From the NCBI GenBank assembly GCA_902373435.1, contig CABKMD010000001.1, positions 20,500 through 84,499 of the forward strand: a stretch of DNA of 64,000 bases, written 5' to 3'. The position numbers were made by a program, and so were the translations under genes. The notes below the pieces were generated by a model. That model saw only the letters and a program-made list of their open reading frames with translations, ran no database searches and was not told the origin of the DNA. Source of the stretch: an uncultured Actinomyces sp. Its GTDB lineage: Bacteria; Actinomycetota; Actinomycetes; Actinomycetales; Actinomycetaceae. Shown here piece by piece: positions 15,747 to 23,601 of the stretch (positions within the stretch are counted from its first letter, which is position 1; the number at the start of each line of letters is the position of its first letter).

Positions 15747-15887
15747 CTGGGCGGTTGTAGATCGTCTGCGGGGGACGGTTATGTCAATGTCCTTCTGGAA
15801 TTAAACGCGTAGCATCAGCGTTGGCATTGTGCGTCGGTGAGTAATGCTCGCTAGGCTTGGATGCACATCAACAGAAAGGCCCAGACA

Positions 15888-16739
15888 ATGGCAAAGCCGT
15901 CTCGCTCGCAGGAAGTGCGTGAGAAAGCTCAGCAACTGCGTGAGCAACAGGCACGTGCGGATCGCCGAACCCGAAACATCATCATCGGACTGGTCGTACT
16001 GATTCTTGTTGTGATCATTGGCGCGATCGCTGCGGTGATCATTCAGTCGAACCACAAGAAGGCTCAGGACAGCCAAGCTGCGACCGCCGCCATCGGTTCC
16101 TACGGGGACGGCGGACCGATTGTGGTTTCTCACTTGGGCATTGGCAAGATCGATGAATCCCTTCCGACGCTGACGGAATACTTTGATTACTCCTGCCACG
16201 TCTGCGCAGCCTATGACGTTGCCTTCGGTGAACAAGCCACTCAAGATGCTCTCGATGGCAAATTCAACATCAAGTACCAGCCGGTGAATACGGTGAAGGC
16301 GCCCTATCAGTACGCCGCAACGACCGCTTCTTTGATCGCCGCGCAAAAGGTCGATGCTCAGACCTGGGGCAAGTTCCACAATGCGCTTCTTGCCTACTTC
16401 AACGAGGCCTACAACTCGGGTAATGGTTCCGTTGTCCAGGACCTGTCGAAGTCGGCCAAGCAGGTCAAGACCATTGCATCGCAGGTTGGAATTCCTGAGG
16501 ATGTTGTGAATTCCTTCCCCGAGAATGGCGTTGATGAATACCTGACCAAGACCACTCAGGCGTGGGGAAATGCCACCTACGAGGGTCGCAGTCCCAATTC
16601 CTTGGGTACTCCCGAGTTTGTTATCAATGACAAGACTGCTCTGGACTTCTCGAAGCTTGGTGTGACCAAGGTCGATGGTATCTACCCGGCAATTCAGCAG
16701 CAGCTTGCTGCCGCGGGAACGGCGTCTGCTTCGAAGTAA
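15888..16739 (+). CDS. Membrane-anchored DsbA-family thiol:disulfide oxidoreductase.
   Basis: N-terminal TM helix and a thioredoxin-fold CHVC active site (YFDYSCHVCAAYD). Confidence 0.7.
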   Translation: MAKPSRSQEVREKAQQLREQQARADRRTRNIIIGLVVLILVVIIGAIAAVIIQSNHKKAQDSQAATAAIGSYGDGGPIVVSHLGIGKIDESLPTLTEYFDYSCHVCAAYDVAFGEQATQDALDGKFNIKYQPVNTVKAPYQYAATTASLIAAQKVDAQTWGKFHNALLAYFNEAYNSGNGSVVQDLSKSAKQVKTIASQVGIPEDVVNSFPENGVDEYLTKTTQAWGNATYEGRSPNSLGTPEFVINDKTALDFSKLGVTKVDGIYPAIQQQLAAAGTASASK

Positions 16740-16968: not shown

Positions 16969-17044
16969 TGCCACCTTAGCTCAGTTGGTAGAGCACCCGC
17001 CTTGTAAGCGGACGGTCGTCGGTTCGAGTCCGACAGGTGGCTCC
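16969..17044 (+). tRNA. tRNA-Thr (anticodon TGT).
   Basis: Acceptor stem 7 bp (gccacct/aggtggc), D-loop agctcagttggtagagc, anticodon loop cttgtaa, T-loop ggttcgagtcc, discriminator t and an encoded CCA. Length 76 nt. Confidence 0.85.
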
Positions 17045-17216
17045 ATTTTTTTATCCGGGAGACCGACTCCTCTTTTTCCCTGTGTTTTCAAGCTTTCGAA
17101 ATGTTTTTGAATCTCATAAATTTAGGTTGTCGAAGCAGCAATTGCTCCGTTGGCGCGGTAAATTTGCAATTGTCGATCCAGATTACGCAAAGGCGCGCCT
17201 AGTTGACAGGAGAGAG

Positions 17217-17612
17217 ATGGATGGACTCATCTCATTTGGTCTAGGACTCTTAACGTTTGTTGCCGCATTCTGCTTGGCTGGTCTAGCGCGAGCGATGCGA
17301 AATGACAAATTGCCGCCGAATATGTGGGCGGGAATCAGGACGAAGGCAGCATCAGAGTCGGAGTCGTCCTGGTATCAGGTTCAACGAGCAGGTTCAGTCC
17401 CACTCATTTGCTTAGCAGTTGCTTATGCAGATTCAGGTTTACTCTTCATTCTTCAAGGAATCTACCACGAGGTCATTTCTCCACTTATTCCGGTAGTTGT
17501 GTTTAGTGCACAAAGTCTCGTCGGAATTATATGGATATACAAGGCGAGCAGTAACTCCGATCCATCACAAAACCAGAGTGGAACCAGTGAGGTCTCCGAA
17601 AGAATTAAGTAA
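17217..17612 (+). CDS. SdpI/YhfL-family small membrane protein (homologue of a toxin-immunity/signal-transduction protein).
   Basis: Three to four TM helices and the family motif N-x-W-A-G-I-R-T ... S-E-x-S-W. Gene GC is about 45%, in a low-GC patch directly 3' of tRNA-Thr. Confidence 0.6.
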   Translation: MDGLISFGLGLLTFVAAFCLAGLARAMRNDKLPPNMWAGIRTKAASESESSWYQVQRAGSVPLICLAVAYADSGLLFILQGIYHEVISPLIPVVVFSAQSLVGIIWIYKASSNSDPSQNQSGTSEVSERIK

Positions 17613-17826
17613 AAAATGAATTCGGCCATCGTTGTGCCCCAAAAATATTGAGTCAGAAGCGGGACGTGACTTTGGAGCGTGCTCTAGCGAGCCTATGTGA
17701 GTGCGGCAGCCTCTCGAAGGTTGTGGGGTCTGCTGTATGCGTTGGAATCTTGTTTCCCAATACCCCCAGGGGTATTCTTGGAGGAGGCAAAGAAGACATT
17801 CCACCGAGCCAGAAAGCGAGCGGCAC

Positions 17827-19509
17827 GTGCGAGTTGTAGTTGTCGGAGGAGTCGCGGGTGGTATGAGTGCGGCGGCACGTCTGCGCAGACGCGATGAGGG
17901 TGCCGAGATCATCGTGTTGGAGCGCAGCAAATACGTGTCATTCGCGAACTGCGGGCTCCCGTACTACGTTGGCGGCGAGATCGAAGACCCCGCCAGGCTC
18001 CTCCTCCACACCCCGCAATCTCTCAAGGCTGCGCTGAACCTCGACGTGCGCATCAACTCCGAGGTCACGGCGATCAACCCCGGCGCGCACAGCCTCCAGG
18101 TCACTGACACTGAGACCGCTGAGGCCTACGCGCTCACCTACGATTACCTAATCCTCTCCCCGGGCGGCCTCGCGAGCCTGCCCCCAATCGACGGCCTCGA
18201 TTCCCCGCGCGTGCACACGCTGCGCACGGTTGACGATGCCCTCGCCCTGCGCGAGGCCTCGGGCACGCACGCCGTTGTCCTCGGCGCCGGGTTCATCGGC
18301 ATCGAGGCCACCGAAGCGCTCGCACAGCGAGGCTTCGAAACCCACCTTGTCGAGTGTGCCGAGCACGTCCTGCCACCCCTCGAAGTCGAGATGGCCACGC
18401 TGGTCACGCAGGAGCTGCGCGCTCTTGGCATTCACGTTCACGCCGGCGTTGCGGCCCAGTCCGTCATCCACGGCGTCGACAACGACTCTGTGACGCTCTC
18501 CGACGGCACCGTCCTGACCACCGATGTCATCGTCCTGTCGACCGGTGTGTGCCCTGACACCGCCTTCGCCGAGGCCGCGGGCATCGAGACCAGCCGCGGC
18601 TACATCCTTGTTGATGAGCATGGGCGTACCAGCGTGGACGACATCTACGCGGTCGGCGACGGCACGATGGGTCGCGACCACGACCGCCCCGTCGCCCTGG
18701 CCGGACCCGCAAACCGCGGGGGACGCCTCGTCGCTGACGCTATTGCCGACGCCGAACAAGGCGAGGCCGCCGCGCGCCCCATCCCGAAGCCTCAGGGCAC
18801 CGCGATCGTTCGGATCGGCGGACTTACCGCCGCCATGACCGGCGCTAACCGCCAGGCCCTCGATGCCTCGGGCGCGGAGTACTTTACGGTGCACACGCAC
18901 GCTAACCAGCACGCGGGCTATTTCCCCGGCGCCAAGCCCGTGCACATCCTCATGCATGTCGGCACCGGCGGACAGATTCTCGGCGCGCAAGCCGTGGGCA
19001 CCGACGGTGTGGACCGCCGCATCGACGTCATTGCGACCGCCATGCGGGCCGGCCTGAAGGCGACGGATCTCATCGACCTGGACCTCGCCTACGCCCCGCC
19101 CTACGGCCAGGCCAAGGACCCCGTCAACCAGACCGGAATGGTCGCGCACAACGTGCTGACCGGCGAGCTCGTCCTCACCGGTCCGGACGCCCTGACCGTG
19201 GACATGCCAGTCCTCGACGTACGCACGGTGGGGGAATACGTGGCCGGGCACATGCCGAACTCCCTGAACATTCCGCACACCCAGCTGCGCGACCGCCTCG
19301 ATGAAGTCCGCTCTTGGGTCGATGAGAAGGTCGGAGACCAGCCTTTCGTTGTCATGTGCGCGGCGGGCGTGCGCTCTTGGATTGGCTACCGCATCGTGCG
19401 CCACGCGGGCTTTAACGTCACCATGCTGTCGGGCGGCATTCAGACGCTGCGCGCATGGCTCGGAGAGAAGGCCGAGGCCGTTCTCGTCATGGGGGAGGGG
19501 CGCTCATGA
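17827..19509 (+). CDS. CoA-disulfide reductase with a C-terminal rhodanese domain (CoADR-RHD, a CoA-persulfide-reductase type).
   Basis: Rossmann motif VVVVGGVAGG, CoADR redox Cys in SFANCGLPYY, and a C-terminal rhodanese with active Cys in CAAGVRS. GTG 17827 was chosen so the protein begins at the FAD-binding motif. Confidence 0.8.
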   Translation: MRVVVVGGVAGGMSAAARLRRRDEGAEIIVLERSKYVSFANCGLPYYVGGEIEDPARLLLHTPQSLKAALNLDVRINSEVTAINPGAHSLQVTDTETAEAYALTYDYLILSPGGLASLPPIDGLDSPRVHTLRTVDDALALREASGTHAVVLGAGFIGIEATEALAQRGFETHLVECAEHVLPPLEVEMATLVTQELRALGIHVHAGVAAQSVIHGVDNDSVTLSDGTVLTTDVIVLSTGVCPDTAFAEAAGIETSRGYILVDEHGRTSVDDIYAVGDGTMGRDHDRPVALAGPANRGGRLVADAIADAEQGEAAARPIPKPQGTAIVRIGGLTAAMTGANRQALDASGAEYFTVHTHANQHAGYFPGAKPVHILMHVGTGGQILGAQAVGTDGVDRRIDVIATAMRAGLKATDLIDLDLAYAPPYGQAKDPVNQTGMVAHNVLTGELVLTGPDALTVDMPVLDVRTVGEYVAGHMPNSLNIPHTQLRDRLDEVRSWVDEKVGDQPFVVMCAAGVRSWIGYRIVRHAGFNVTMLSGGIQTLRAWLGEKAEAVLVMGEGRS

Positions 19510-19811
19510 CGACGCGCAAGCAGGTTGTCAATCGCCTCAAGCGTGCTCGCGGGCAGCTCGACAGCCTCATCGACCACATCGAGAGTGGAGATGCGAACTG
19601 TCGGGACGTGCTGACTCAATTCGCGGCCGTTAACTCCGCGATGAAACGCGCTAGCTACCTCGCGGTTGCGACGATCATGTCGCAGTGCGCGATCGAGGAT
19701 TCCATCCTCGAAAACGATGATGCGCCGACACCCGAAGCGGAAGAATCTCTAGTCAAAACCGGGAGCATCTCGATCGAAGAACTCGAGCAATTGTTCCTCC
19801 GGCTAGGCTGA
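19506..19811 (+). CDS. CsoR/RcnR/CstR-family (DUF156) transcriptional repressor. The two-Cys pattern without the CsoR His suggests a persulfide-sensing CstR-like member rather than a Cu sensor.
   Basis: Four-helix-bundle family signature RLKRARGQLDSLIDHIESGDANCRDVLTQ. Cys residues sit in ANCRD and SQCAIE. The ATG overlaps the upstream TGA (ATGA). Confidence 0.8.
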   Translation: MTTRKQVVNRLKRARGQLDSLIDHIESGDANCRDVLTQFAAVNSAMKRASYLAVATIMSQCAIEDSILENDDAPTPEAEESLVKTGSISIEELEQLFLRLG

Positions 19812-19906
19812 TGCGACAAAGCAATCAGCCCGCCTAGAAAAACCTCATCACACCATGCAGCGGATCCGTTGATGGATTCGAGGCCCGATCAACGAAGGAG
19901 ACAATC

Positions 19907-20086
19907 ATGTGTCGACCCACTACCTGTGAAGTATGCGGAAAGACCACCTGGAAAGGCTGCGGCAAGCACATCGACTCGGTGAGGGAACAAGTGCCCCCGG
20001 AGCAGTGGTGCGATAAGGACCATACCGAAGAGGAGTGCGCCGCCGCCAAGAAGAAACGCGGTTTCTTCGGTAGCCTCTGCAGCTAG
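19907..20086 (+). CDS. Unlisted 59-aa cysteine-rich small protein (7 Cys, 3 His): MCRPTTCEVCGKTTWKGCGKHIDSVREQVPPEQWCDKDHTEEECAAAKKKRGFFGSLCS.
   Basis: Strong RBS aaggag 7 nt upstream of ATG 19907. It is an open frame of 59 codons with coding-like codon usage. It is below the 60-aa cutoff of the ORF track. Confidence 0.5.
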   Translation: MCRPTTCEVCGKTTWKGCGKHIDSVREQVPPEQWCDKDHTEEECAAAKKKRGFFGSLCS

Positions 20087-20250
20087 CCCTCGGCCCTTCT
20101 GGCATCGTCGCGGACCGTGCATGTCTTGATCTCCGACATATAGATTGATTGATCAACTTACCTTCTCTTTCGTCGGTAGAATCAAGCCAATTCTTCCCTT
20201 CTATTTGGACGTTTTCCCGGCGTCCGTGCCGCCGAAGGATGGGTTTGATC

Positions 20251-23200
20251 ATGCATCATCAACACACTCGAGTGCGTTCTGCCTCGATTCGAAAGCTATT
20301 TCTTACCGCTTTGCTCACCGGCGCGCTTGTGTGCGGAACAGGTTTAGCTCCAGCTCTAGCAGAGCCGGCCTCTCCCACTCCCTCTTCCGAGGCCTCGGCG
20401 ACCACAGGAGCAGAAGCGTCCCAGGAAGCTCACGGAGTGGAAGCACCCCAGTCGACCAGCGAGGCCTCTCCTCTGCCGTCCGCCCCCAGCGGTCAGGACC
20501 GGGCGGCTCGCGGAGCGGCTGCCTCGTCGGATATGACCCTGACCAATGAACGCAATACGACGGATGTTGTCATTGAACTTCCCGAGGGCGAAGCTGGCAA
20601 AGAACTCCGCGAGAGTGCGGATACCGTGCACCTGCGCGCAACCATGAGCTACCGCGGGAAAGTGACGCGTGAAATTGATCAGCGGATCTCATTGAAGGAC
20701 TTCACTGACGACTACTACATTCTCGACTTCAAGAACTTTGGGAAGTTCACTGTCGAACTTTCGACCGAGAAAAACGGGGCGGTAGTCCGTAAATTCCCAA
20801 AGCGTACAGTCGGCGTGACCGCGGATAGCTACGTGCTTGCTCCAGTCAGTGCGACACTTCCCGTTGCGATGTTTTCGCTGAACCTTTGGGGTAAGGATTC
20901 AGTTCGGAAAATCGGCCCTGTCATCGCCATGTTCGAGCGTCCCAATGCTTATGACTGGAATGCGCTGCCCGGCCCAACTGCTGAAGAGCATGGAGTTTAT
21001 GCGCTTCCTTACCTGACTGAGCGTGAGAACGCGTTCCAGCCAGGCGGTTTCGACGAGGCCGCGCAGCAGTTCCGTGATCGCATCGACGTTTTTGCTGATT
21101 ACGTGCGTGATTTGCGTGAGTTGGATCCTTCTTCTGATTTCCACCTCTACTCGGTCGATATGTTCCCCAATATGGTCCAGAAGGTCATCTACGCGAATCG
21201 GATCCCTCAAGACCAATACACGATCAATCTCATGACCGATGGGGCGTATTCCTACGTGAAGTTTGCCGATCTCTATCAGGGATCAAACCCGCGAGGAACG
21301 CACGAGCGCTTGCTTCGTGAGTGGAAAGAAATGAAGGAACACGCCTACGCCAATGGGCGTGCTGATGCGAAGGCCTCCGAGCAGTGGAGCACAGCTGACT
21401 ATTTGTGGGCACTGGTCGATTCTGAGCCGAATGCGCACTGGTGGCTGGCTCGCCCGAAGCTTTTGAGTACTTCGGGAGATGGGAATGCTTTTGCAACCCA
21501 GGTTCAAAAGTCGCCGAAGGTTCGCGGCGTTAATATCTCTCAGCTGCTGAGCGCGAATATCAAGCCCTCGAAGGAAGCGACCGAGCAGTTTAAGGCCCTC
21601 TATAACTTCAACGATGGGTACTTCAGTGCCGCGGAACGTGAGGGCAAGGACGTCCTTCTGCTTCTTGGAACGATTCATCCCAATGAACAGGGCTTCGAAG
21701 ACTATGCCCGCTTTACGAAGAGCTACTACGGGGATCGCTACGCCTACTACTACAAGGGGCACCCAGCGACGCCCACGGAAATGTCAGTTCCCAAGCAAGA
21801 ACAACTCAAGCGTCTGGGAATGGATGATGTCGATGCCTCCATTGCGGCGGAATTGATTCTGTTCTTTAACCCGGGAATTGATATTGCCGGTTATCAGTCC
21901 TCAACTTTTGAGTCGACCCAGCCTGGGCGCTCGAAGGGAGTGTTTAACTACACCAAGGGTGAAGCTATGGCTAAGGCCGATTCGCCCTACCGTGACCTCG
22001 ACTTCTGGATCGTCCCGATCGATCGGGCGTGGGACCAGCTGAAGCGCTTGTGTCCAGGTGGACACAGCTGCTACCAGGTGGAGTTCTCTGACCAGATTGC
22101 CGCGCGCGAAGGTTATACACACGCGCTGTGGGATGCCACTGATTCTGTCATCGTCTACTACAAGAAACAGGGGGATCGTTTCGAGAAGGTCCGCAGTCAA
22201 GATGCGATTGGTGAAAAGTCCTCGGTAGAGCCGGGGGAGTACTTCATTAAGTCAGCGCTCGCGGATCACCTGGTTCTGGATGTTCCCGGTGCTAGCCGTG
22301 ATAATGGCGCGAATGTCCAGCTGTGGGACGCGAATCGAAGCGATGCCCAGAAGTGGCGTGTTTCTTATGATTCGCAAGGACTTGCGACCATCACCAATGT
22401 GGCCTCGGGTAAGGTGCTTGATGCCCAATGGGGGTCCTCGCGTCCTGGGACCAACGTTGACCAGTGGAGTTCTAACGGTACGCGCGCGCAGAAGTGGCGC
22501 ATCACTTCGGACGATCAGGGCCGAGTGAAGATCGTCTCCGCTTTGGATCCCGCAATCGTTTTGGATGTTGCAGCGGCCAATGCTTCAGCGGGAGCGAATG
22601 TCGGCCTGTGGAATGCAAATGGCTCTGATGCTCAGGCATTTTCATTCATTCCGACTCATCCCAAGGTTTCCTCCGCGGGTCAGGCAGATATCACCCCCGG
22701 TTACTACGAGCTAGCAAGCGTCGTTGATCCCACGAAGGGGATCGATCTGAAAGACTTCGCGATGAACAACGGGGCTCGGCTTCAGCTGTGGGGTTCAAGC
22801 AAGACCGATAATCAGATCTGGAAAATTAGCCGTGAATCTGATGGCTTCTACCGATTGGTGAATACCTGGTCGAATAAGTCCTTGGATTCCACTGATGGCA
22901 CTCCGATTCCCGGTACTGAGCTCCAGTTGTGGGACACGGACATGTCCAATGCGAACCAGAAGTGGGCAATCTTCTCGGTGACGGGAGGGGCGTATATGCT
23001 CCGCAACGTCGGGACCGGTCTGGTTGTCAATCTTCGCTGGGGACAGGCGCGTAATGGTATGGCTATTGACGGCTACCTGGCCAATGGAACAACCTCTCAG
23101 CAGTGGCGTCTGAACCCGGTTCAAGGGCCCCAAGAGATCCTGGATCAGTGGGCGAAGGAAAACCGCAACTTGGTTCCTGATGGTGAGTATCAGATCCGTC

Positions 23201-23601
23201 CGGTTGTCGCCCCGAATAATCGTGTCGAGGTCCAATGGGCATCTCGGGACGCGGGAGCTCGCGTCTGGTCTTTCCAGTCCAACGGAAGTGCGGCACAGAA
23301 GTGGCGTATCAGTCACGACGACAAGGGCTACGTGACCTTGACCAACGTGGCTTCTGGGAAAGTCTTGGATGTCTTCGCGGCGTGGAAGAACTGGCCGGCT
23401 CGGGTCAATCAGCAGCCCTCGAACTCCTCCGCGGCTCAAAAGTGGGTCATCCAAGAGCGAGGCGGCCATAAAGTTCTTGTTTCGGCACTCTCGCCCATGT
23501 TGGTCCTTGATCTTGAAGGTGGGCGTAGCCAGAACGAAACAACGGTTCACCTCTATCAGGACAATGGAAGTTCGGCCCAGCGCTTTGATTTCCTGAAGTA
23601 G
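20251..23601 (+). CDS. Secreted multidomain protein. It has a signal peptide, a GT80-like bacterial sialyltransferase / trans-sialidase-like domain, and four ricin-B (QxW)3 beta-trefoil lectin repeats.
   Basis: Signal peptide LFLTALLTGALVCGTGLAPALA. Sialyltransferase signature motifs are INLMTDGAYSYV (D/E-D/E-G-type) and YYKGHP (HP motif). There are repeated ...QLWD.N.S.AQKWR... ricin-B modules from about aa 700. GC is lower than in core genes. Confidence 0.7.
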   Translation: MHHQHTRVRSASIRKLFLTALLTGALVCGTGLAPALAEPASPTPSSEASATTGAEASQEAHGVEAPQSTSEASPLPSAPSGQDRAARGAAASSDMTLTNERNTTDVVIELPEGEAGKELRESADTVHLRATMSYRGKVTREIDQRISLKDFTDDYYILDFKNFGKFTVELSTEKNGAVVRKFPKRTVGVTADSYVLAPVSATLPVAMFSLNLWGKDSVRKIGPVIAMFERPNAYDWNALPGPTAEEHGVYALPYLTERENAFQPGGFDEAAQQFRDRIDVFADYVRDLRELDPSSDFHLYSVDMFPNMVQKVIYANRIPQDQYTINLMTDGAYSYVKFADLYQGSNPRGTHERLLREWKEMKEHAYANGRADAKASEQWSTADYLWALVDSEPNAHWWLARPKLLSTSGDGNAFATQVQKSPKVRGVNISQLLSANIKPSKEATEQFKALYNFNDGYFSAAEREGKDVLLLLGTIHPNEQGFEDYARFTKSYYGDRYAYYYKGHPATPTEMSVPKQEQLKRLGMDDVDASIAAELILFFNPGIDIAGYQSSTFESTQPGRSKGVFNYTKGEAMAKADSPYRDLDFWIVPIDRAWDQLKRLCPGGHSCYQVEFSDQIAAREGYTHALWDATDSVIVYYKKQGDRFEKVRSQDAIGEKSSVEPGEYFIKSALADHLVLDVPGASRDNGANVQLWDANRSDAQKWRVSYDSQGLATITNVASGKVLDAQWGSSRPGTNVDQWSSNGTRAQKWRITSDDQGRVKIVSALDPAIVLDVAAANASAGANVGLWNANGSDAQAFSFIPTHPKVSSAGQADITPGYYELASVVDPTKGIDLKDFAMNNGARLQLWGSSKTDNQIWKISRESDGFYRLVNTWSNKSLDSTDGTPIPGTELQLWDTDMSNANQKWAIFSVTGGAYMLRNVGTGLVVNLRWGQARNGMAIDGYLANGTTSQQWRLNPVQGPQEILDQWAKENRNLVPDGEYQIRPVVAPNNRVEVQWASRDAGARVWSFQSNGSAAQKWRISHDDKGYVTLTNVASGKVLDVFAAWKNWPARVNQQPSNSSAAQKWVIQERGGHKVLVSALSPMLVLDLEGGRSQNETTVHLYQDNGSSAQRFDFLK

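Follow-up and report, generated by a model that had tools for sequence, protein, structure and literature searches.

A conserved small Cys/His-rich protein gene as a probable member of the CstR persulfide-response regulon in Actinomycetota

Introduction

Bacteria are known to counter hydrogen sulfide and persulfide stress mainly through operons controlled by CstR-type repressors. These operons are of importance in host-associated actinobacteria, among them Trueperella, Schaalia, Actinomyces, and Cutibacterium, and for antibiotic production in Streptomyces. The described systems closest to the locus studied here are cstR-cstA-cstB-sqr of Staphylococcus aureus, cstR-rhdA-coaP-rhdB of Enterococcus faecalis and streptococci, and ScCsoR-pdo-tauE-rhod of Streptomyces coelicolor. 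An x-C-x-C signature, with two Cys and no Cu-ligand His, separates persulfide-sensing CstR from Cu-sensing CsoR (PMC8643695), and the site bound by the S. coelicolor sulfane-sulfur sensor ScCsoR was mapped experimentally as ATACC-n6-GGTAT, with two sites in the pdo promoter (PMC7533328). Here, we analyzed a small gene for a 59-residue Cys/His-rich protein that lies behind a gene for a repressor of this type in a 64,000-nucleotide stretch of DNA, hereafter the window, from an uncultured Actinomyces sp. (GenBank assembly GCA_902373435.1, contig CABKMD010000001.1, positions 20,500 to 84,499 of the forward strand).

The locus and its relatives share with the described operons the repressor type (two Cys, no His), the operator ATACC-n6-GGTAT, and the enzymes, which are a CoA-disulfide-reductase-like protein with a rhodanese domain (Cdr) in the window, and a persulfide dioxygenase–rhodanese, TauE, and rhodanese in related loci. 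They differ from the described operons in that thioredoxin is also a frequent operon member, and in the small protein itself: it is mentioned in neither PMC7533328 nor PMC8643695, whereas here no other gene is found directly behind the CstR operator as consistently across Actinomycetota. This regulatory system is an established one, and the small protein as a component of it is new and undescribed in the literature that we searched.

Results

The small gene and its operon in the window

The sites and genes concerned are the following.

17760–17775, no strand assigned: CsoR/CstR-type operator ATACCCCCAGGGGTAT, an exact match to ATACCCCNNGGGGTAT
17827–19509, + strand: cdr, CoA-disulfide/persulfide-reductase-like flavoprotein with a C-terminal rhodanese domain (CoAPR/Npsr type), from Pfam and NCBIfam matches
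19506–19811, + strand: cstR-type CsoR-family repressor of 101 amino acids (aa), Pfam PF02583 at 4.3e-17
19895–19900, + strand: Shine-Dalgarno sequence AAGGAG of the small gene, read directly, with the 6-nt spacer ACAATC to the ATG
19907–20086, + strand: small Cys/His-rich protein gene, 59 aa, from a family without assigned function

The small open reading frame (ORF) runs from ATG 19907 to a TAG stop codon at 20084–20086, and its 59 codons specify MCRPTTCEVCGKTTWKGCGKHIDSVREQVPPEQWCDKDHTEEECAAAKKKRGFFGSLCS. Cys makes up 7 of the 59 residues (positions 2, 7, 10, 18, 35, 44, and 58), with the spacing C-x4-C-x2-C-x7-C, and a local motif C35-D-K-D-H39 follows further on. An earlier note made from the bare sequence had described a 59-codon frame with an AAGGAG, seven Cys, and this same spacing, directly 3′ of a CsoR-family gene and a CoA-disulfide-reductase-like gene; our reading bears out each of these points, the two upstream genes being identified by PF02583 and by Pyr_redox_2 plus rhodanese, respectively. 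Three details needed correction. The protein contains two His (H21 and H39) instead of three, residue 4 being Pro rather than His; the local motif reads C35-D-K-D-H39; and two of the Cys, C44 and C58, are not kept beyond the closest relatives. In an alignment with six close relatives, the AAGGAG was kept in all of them.

An exact match to ATACCCCNNGGGGTAT was found once in the window, at 17760–17775, where the palindrome extends to AATACCCC-CA-GGGGTATT (17759–17776). The site precedes the probable cdr start by 52 nt and fits both the ScCsoR site (PMC7533328) and the core of the S. mitis cst operator (PMC8643695). The cdr product matched Pyr_redox_2 (2.5e-56), Pyr_redox_dim, and Rhodanese (1.2e-12) in Pfam, the domain architecture of CoA-persulfide reductase, and the CoA-disulfide reductase model of NCBIfam at 6.5e-108, a match that falls below the equivalog cut-off. 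Mechanical calling puts the cdr start at 17701, which would leave the operator inside the ORF; in this long version the Pfam match sets in at residue 44 (17830), and GTG 17827 is the probable start. The ATG of cstR (19506) overlaps the cdr stop codon (ATGA), and the repressor carries Cys32 and Cys61, with Ile57 at the position of the His of Cu(I)-sensing CsoR proteins. The small gene starts 95 nt after cstR and is the last of the three. The simplest reading of this arrangement is a three-gene operon in the order operator, cdr, cstR, and small gene.

Conservation and distribution of the family

A 59-codon open frame is common in this DNA, with 97 ORFs of at least 30 aa within the surrounding 8 kb and the antisense frames of the small ORF open as well, so that its status as a gene must rest on comparative evidence. 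Against six close relatives, the ratio of nonsynonymous to synonymous substitution rates (dN/dS) was 0.11–0.22, and substitutions fell on codon positions 1, 2, and 3 in numbers of 26, 17, and 72. A search with the single protein sequence returned 47 protein clusters at E ≤ 0.01 and a profile search with the family 3085 clusters, while HMMER, run exhaustively over 1.84 billion representatives, gave 376 clusters at 50% identity. In a scan of one genome per species, relatives were present in at least 597 genomes, overwhelmingly of Actinomycetota. Among the relatives listed, those in Trueperella (95% identity) came first, followed by Schaalia, Actinomyces, Propionibacteriaceae, Microbacterium, Leucobacter, Mycobacterium, Rhodococcus, and others. 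Family members also occur in the fungi Didymella, Sporormia, Sphaerosporella, Saccharomycopsis, and Cystobasidium, none of them named. PGAP annotates the gene as a coding sequence for a "hypothetical protein" on 67 actinobacterial plasmids in RefSeq, and public records for the family carry that designation only.

These comparisons identify the small ORF as a genuine gene under purifying selection, a conclusion about which we have hardly any doubt. The earlier note had already taken it for a gene and had named what would speak against this, namely a lack of conservation of the ORF or its Cys positions, with synonymous and nonsynonymous changes equally frequent. Homologues are found, C2, C7, C10, C18, and C35 are conserved, and dN/dS is far below 1.

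A few members were found in metagenome-assembled genomes (MAGs) attributed to other bacteria, one to Pirellulales (L033, with an operator 52 bp upstream) and one to Rubrivivax (P0265); these attributions could reflect binning contamination or transfer out of Actinomycetota. As a separate matter, we considered an RNA element in place of, or ahead of, the small ORF and rejected it. An Rfam scan found no family overlapping the ORF, the 95-nt spacer between cstR and the ORF and the 3′ flank folded no better than shuffled sequence (z = 0.19 and 0.65), and a 7-bp hairpin ahead of the Shine-Dalgarno sequence was not conserved in the alignment of relatives.

Operators, repressors, and neighbouring genes in related loci

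We fetched 80 related loci, in which operators were called with at most 2 mismatches and neighbouring genes within 4.5 kb were identified by targeted tblastn together with a gene picker based on GC content at third codon positions. In 57 loci, an operator was located within the 200 bp that precede the small gene, frequently as two tandem sites 23–35 bp apart that resemble the two-site Scpdo promoter (PMC7533328). In a further 11 it was located further upstream, typically about 1.8–2.2 kb away and before cdr, as in the window, so that an operator precedes the small gene or cdr in 68 of the 80 loci. A CsoR-family gene was found nearby in 46 loci, usually divergent and 115–195 bp away. All 47 repressors, comprising these 46 and the window copy, possess both Cys and lack His at the Cu-ligand position (-4).

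Other recurrent neighbours were a metallo-β-lactamase (MBL)-fold plus rhodanese persulfide dioxygenase in 25 loci, cdr in 21, thioredoxin (WCGPC) in 19, and a TauE/SafE sulfite exporter in 15, with some rhodanese domain in about half of the loci. A common order was small gene, thioredoxin, MBL-rhodanese persulfide dioxygenase, and TauE, the thioredoxin gene usually beginning 15–70 nt after the small gene; alternatively, a cdr-rhodanese gene adjoined the small gene. An annotated island on plasmid pRHL3 of R. jostii RHA1 holds the small gene together with genes for MBL-fold proteins, trxA, a CMD-family protein, rhodanese, a metal-sensitive regulator, DUF2892, DUF302, and TauE, and on a Paenarthrobacter plasmid a DUF2892 gene follows the small gene. 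By tblastn, DUF302 and CMD were found in only 2–3 of the 80 loci and DUF2892 in none, the DUF2892 query being short enough for copies to be missed.

With the exact operator ahead of the transcription unit at 17760–17775 and x-C-x-C cognate repressors both in the window (C32/C61/I57) and in related loci, the small gene very probably belongs to the standard set of the actinobacterial CstR regulon, often in a promoter-proximal position. This agrees with the earlier proposal that the ORF belongs to a thiol- or persulfide-sensing module, which is strengthened by the window operator, by the 57 loci with a nearby operator, by synteny with cstR-type repressors in 46, and by the counts of sulfur-enzyme neighbours given above. 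The small gene accompanies both the reductive (cdr) and the oxidative (persulfide dioxygenase–TauE) modules and sometimes stands alone behind the operator, which suggests a role general to persulfide stress and not confined to one pathway.

Several observations weigh against this assignment and against a sulfur-related role. Twelve of the 80 loci had no operator, and in 20 all five of the sulfur genes tested were missing within 4.5 kb. The fungal members occur without CstR, so that the core function of the protein cannot depend on that regulator. In the window, no second operator was found directly before the small gene even with 3 mismatches allowed, and a consensus scan of 17500–20400 predicted neither promoter nor terminator, so that we infer the operon boundaries, as we do co-transcription, from gene arrangement. 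Nothing relevant to the family turned up when the literature was searched for its motif or for small Cys-rich proteins of CstR regulons.

Conserved residues and predicted fold

The conserved core of the family reads M1-C2-x4-C7-x2-C10-GKTTW-x-G-C18-G-x-H21 ... W/R-C35, followed by C37 or H38/39. Among 93 close to moderate relatives, M1, C2, C7, C10, T13, T14, W15, G17, C18, G19, H21, V25, V29, W34, and C35 were invariant, and R3, G11, K12, P30, Q33, and H39 nearly so. In a set of 130 divergent representatives, C2, C7, and C10 were retained in 100%, C18 and H21 in 98%, and C35 in 91%. The ligand-like position after C35 was C37 (C-x-C) in 53 of these 130, while 57 carried a His 2–4 residues after C35. 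A Cys that can be replaced by His in this way behaves as a metal ligand and not as a disulfide or persulfide cysteine, and the exchange argues that at least some of the conserved Cys and His residues are metal ligands. The other two Cys of the window protein, C44 and C58, are specific to its lineage and are not conserved beyond the closest relatives.

Residue 2 is always Cys in the family. From the specificity of methionine aminopeptidase, Met is expected to be removed before Cys2, and the mature protein would then begin with Cys. At the other end, most members finish in an amphipathic GFFxRLFGR tail (hydrophobic moment 0.46), which we take to be similar to the MinD-type membrane-targeting helix KGFLKRLFGG (hydrophobic moment 0.45); membrane association through this tail is possible. 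The tail of the window protein (20057–20083) is GFFGSLCS, and its clade shows GFFGS(L/F)C(S/K/R), with a clade-specific Cys.

AlphaFold2, run on the alignment of 93 sequences, gave a model with a mean predicted local distance difference test score (pLDDT) of 79.8 and of about 85 over residues 1–40. In the model, strands 3–6 and 13–16 flank the C7-x2-C10 turn, a helix (22–28) comes right after C18-x2-H21, and a second helix spans 41–57. This predicted layout, a β-hairpin with a C7-x2-C10 knuckle, a helix starting at C18-x2-H21, and a C-terminal helix, would resemble a treble-clef zinc site. The invariant set C2, C7, C10, C18, H21, and C35, with C37 or H38/39 and the N-terminal Cys, would most likely bind metal, probably one or two Zn; two Zn sites are possible when the amine at the N-terminus is included to make eight ligands. 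We consider it likely that the small protein is a metal-binding Cys/His domain.

Scans of the small protein against Pfam and NCBIfam gave no match at E ≤ 1. A sequence search of the PDB with the family profile gave chance-level matches only (best E = 0.08, cerato-platanin), and no structural match in the PDB was found. The family has no Pfam model, no name, and no solved or recognisable fold. Its window representative is best explained as a cytoplasmic member of this widespread family.

Link to thioredoxin and natural fusions

The small gene is linked to thioredoxin and to rhodanese-containing enzymes by adjacency and by fusion. Fusions are rare: the small domain is N-terminal to thioredoxin in three proteins (P0117, P0136, and P0169) and is joined to a YgaP-like/DUF2892 transmembrane domain in one (P0161). 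In addition, a predicted protein of 131 aa on a 754-nt metagenome contig (P0050) joins small-protein residues 1–46 directly to the C-terminal rhodanese part of Cdr, which reflects either a true rearrangement or a chimera made in assembly.

Thioredoxins encoded next to the small gene scored best against the TrxC model, with 96–101 bits versus 53–61 for TrxA, a result to be read alongside the equally good scores of generic thioredoxin models. The TrxC match covers positions 39–137, and these proteins therefore lack the TrxC zinc finger. We considered whether the small protein is that N-terminal finger encoded separately. Both are small Cys-rich domains that come before a thioredoxin, within the same chain or from a gene immediately ahead. 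An hhalign comparison of the family profile with E. coli TrxC gave a probability of 0.5% (E = 0.13). The Cys spacing differs as well, being C-x4-C-x2-C-x7-C-x2-H...C in the small protein and C-x2-C-x16-C-x2-C in the Trx2/TrxC finger, and the small protein is usually a separate polypeptide. We rejected this identification.

Comparison with known classes of small thiol and metal proteins

The mycobacterial RicR (CsoR-family) regulon includes MymT, a copper metallothionein that is small and rich in Cys. Set side by side by description, both are small Cys-rich proteins under a CsoR-family repressor in Actinomycetota, whereas the regulator here is of the persulfide-sensing type, and the small protein has conserved aromatic and His residues and a predicted fold without metallothionein-like Cys clustering. 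Membership in the metallothioneins was rejected, given no Pfam match at E ≤ 1, invariant W15, W34, and H21, and pLDDT of about 85 over residues 1–40. The same holds for CopZ/HMA metallochaperones, for which no HMA match was found; the neighbours are sulfur enzymes and not CopA, and the repressors lack the Cu-ligand His. Metallothionein and copper metallochaperone had both been offered as options in the earlier note. Both now appear unlikely, the former also in that five of the seven Cys are conserved and are interspersed with invariant W, G, T, K, and H, the latter in view of the 47 repressors.

RsrA-type (ZAS) and Hsp33-type proteins are zinc-thiolate redox switches reset by thioredoxin. The small protein resembles them in its probable Zn-Cys/His centre and in its genetic coupling to thioredoxin and a thiol-stress regulon. 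It differs in that the signal would be sulfane sulfur and not disulfide stress, that no sigma-factor partner is present, and that the H-x3-C-x2-C motif is absent from both the 59-aa sequence and the family consensus, so that we did not assign it to the RsrA-like group. With the sulfur carriers rhodanese, TusA, and DsrE, the family shares genomic association with persulfide-metabolising enzymes and plausible sulfane-sulfur carriage; unlike them, it has many conserved Cys and His residues instead of a single catalytic Cys, and a different, much smaller predicted fold. No Pfam, NCBIfam, or PDB structural match placed it among them, and no Pfam match at E ≤ 1 placed it among WhiB-like or ferredoxin iron-sulfur (Fe-S) proteins.

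Genomic setting of the window module

The GC content of cdr is 0.67–0.69 versus 0.48–0.58 in the flanks, and the block that contains the module (16970–20086) begins just after tRNA-Thr (16970–17045). Compared with genomes of Schaalia/Actinomyces, called other genera (loci L002–L006), Cdr is 88–94% and the small protein 83–86% identical. The GC contrast, the tRNA-Thr boundary, and the high identity to other genera suggest that the module was acquired horizontally. In one of these Schaalia/Actinomyces loci (L002, 5860–5967) and in three others (L003–L005), all that lies between cdr and the small gene is a remnant of 35 codons, MTTDKSERSVLRLAS..., which keeps the first and last residues of CstR without the core bearing both sensing Cys; the operator before cdr is kept in L002. 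The remnant looks like an internal deletion of the repressor that would make the operon constitutive.

Downstream of the small gene, after an AT-rich gap, a gene at 20251–23601 (+) encodes an unrelated secreted protein of 1116 aa with a signal-peptide-like N-terminus, six ricin-type β-trefoil lectin repeats in its C-terminal half, and an N-terminal region of about 650 aa without a Pfam match. This same gene also follows the small gene in a T. pyogenes MAG (L001). Upstream, in the stretch from the tRNA to the operator, 17037–17612 (+) encodes an SdpI/YfhL-family membrane protein whose true start is probably later than the listed one, which overlaps the tRNA. A membrane-anchored protein of 292 aa, encoded ahead of the tRNA at 15861–16739 (+), carries a C-H-V-C motif and matched nothing in Pfam at 1e-4. 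The segment 17846–18014 (-), which runs antisense to the 5′ portion of cdr, gave a sub-threshold Rfam match to the Vibrio antisense RNA V_AS7 (46.8 bits against a gathering threshold of 90, E = 5.5e-07), which probably reflects conserved flavoprotein coding sequence and not an RNA gene.

Discussion

Taken together, the small protein is best explained as a metal-structured, probably Zn-binding, thiol protein of the CstR regulon that takes up or relays sulfane sulfur, an explanation to which we give an even chance of being correct. In the mechanism that we propose, CstR bound at ATACCCCCAGGGGTAT, where binding is predicted, would repress cdr, cstR, and the small gene, and reactive sulfur species would cross-link Cys32 and Cys61 of CstR and thereby relieve repression. 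Under sulfide or persulfide stress, the thiolates of the small protein would accept sulfane sulfur and form persulfide or polysulfide bridges, and metal might be released. The charged protein would then be discharged or re-reduced by the neighbouring thioredoxin, or by a rhodanese-fused reductase or dioxygenase, and would in this way be a protein-based sink or relay of sulfane sulfur. The specific proposal of a sulfane-sulfur acceptor or relay coupled to thioredoxin or rhodanese, drawn from gene content and sequence, is tentative, and we would sooner expect it to need revision than to hold in full. The label of persulfide carrier given in the earlier note is plausible on the same grounds.

Sulfide complexes metals, and the protein might accordingly serve as a metal buffer or metallochaperone that binds Zn, Cu, or Fe to protect or re-supply metals under sulfide, with no sulfur transfer of its own. 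Seven conserved potential ligands, including an invariant His and the position that alternates between Cys and His, would suit such a function, as would a regulator family that includes metal sensors, yet all 47 adjacent repressors are of the persulfide-sensor type without the Cu-ligand His (PMC8643695). The neighbours are sulfur enzymes and thioredoxin in place of CopA/CopZ or metal transporters, the fusions are to thioredoxin and a YgaP-like domain and not to metal domains, no metallothionein or HMA model in Pfam is matched, and the five conserved Cys sit in a well-ordered, Trp-containing predicted fold unlike that of metallothioneins; we regard a metal buffer as unlikely. We hold a similarly low opinion of a purely regulatory zinc-thiolate redox switch, in which oxidation or persulfidation would release Zn and alter binding to thioredoxin, TauE, a rhodanese domain, or CstR, modulating the response while carrying no sulfur. 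The N-terminal position of the domain in the thioredoxin fusions, the placement of the gene immediately upstream of a TrxC-like thioredoxin without its finger, and its occurrence alone behind an operator in about 14 of the 20 loci that lack all five tested sulfur genes nearby are all compatible with a switch. On the other side stand the lack of homology to the Trx2 zinc finger (hhalign), the missing ZAS motif, the equal scores of generic thioredoxin models, and the fact that no partner was identified.

Five invariant Cys within 35 residues and redox enzymes among the partners would also be in keeping with a small Fe-S protein, in which four conserved Cys hold a [2Fe-2S] or [4Fe-4S] cluster and the protein serves the adjacent flavoprotein or dioxygenase as electron carrier or sensor. 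An invariant His and Cys/His exchange are more typical of Zn sites, ferredoxin, rubredoxin, and WhiB models in Pfam were unmatched at E ≤ 1, as were known structures, and CoAPR and persulfide dioxygenase are not known to require an Fe-S partner, which leaves this reading distinctly improbable. Polycysteine leaderless small ORFs in mycobacteria have been described as cysteine-sensing attenuators (bioRxiv 10.1101/834739), and a Cys-rich ORF that is often the first after a promoter or operator and ahead of sulfur genes could similarly be a leader that senses cysteine supply, its peptide being functionless. Such an attenuator is very hard to reconcile with conservation beyond Cys (K12, T13, T14, W15, G17, G19, H21, V25, V29, P30, and W34), Cys codons that are dispersed and not consecutive, a strong Shine-Dalgarno sequence, the last position in the window operon, and the existence of fungal homologues and domain fusions. 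A chance ORF in GC-rich DNA, for which the abundance of 59-codon frames and the open antisense frames could be cited, is practically dismissed: it is already refuted by conservation, with low dN/dS, an excess of substitutions at codon position 3, invariant residues shared by thousands of homologues from different phyla, and annotation as a coding sequence on RefSeq plasmids.

Beyond the uptake or relay of sulfane sulfur within the CstR regulon, the family may represent an unrecognised class of sulfane-sulfur carrier or redox relay, a bolder idea that we consider possible and rather unlikely. In such a class, a domain of about 40 residues with two metal sites would capture persulfide or polysulfide sulfur through its N-terminal Cys and Zn-bound thiolates and pass it to a rhodanese-fused persulfide dioxygenase or a CoA-persulfide reductase, with thioredoxin resetting the protein. 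If this were true, the family would be a missing conserved component of reactive-sulfur homeostasis, common to Actinomycetota and fungi and occasionally fused to thioredoxin. Whether as sulfur relay or as redox switch, the small protein would add a component to models of reactive-sulfur homeostasis and would explain the thioredoxin genes in these operons.

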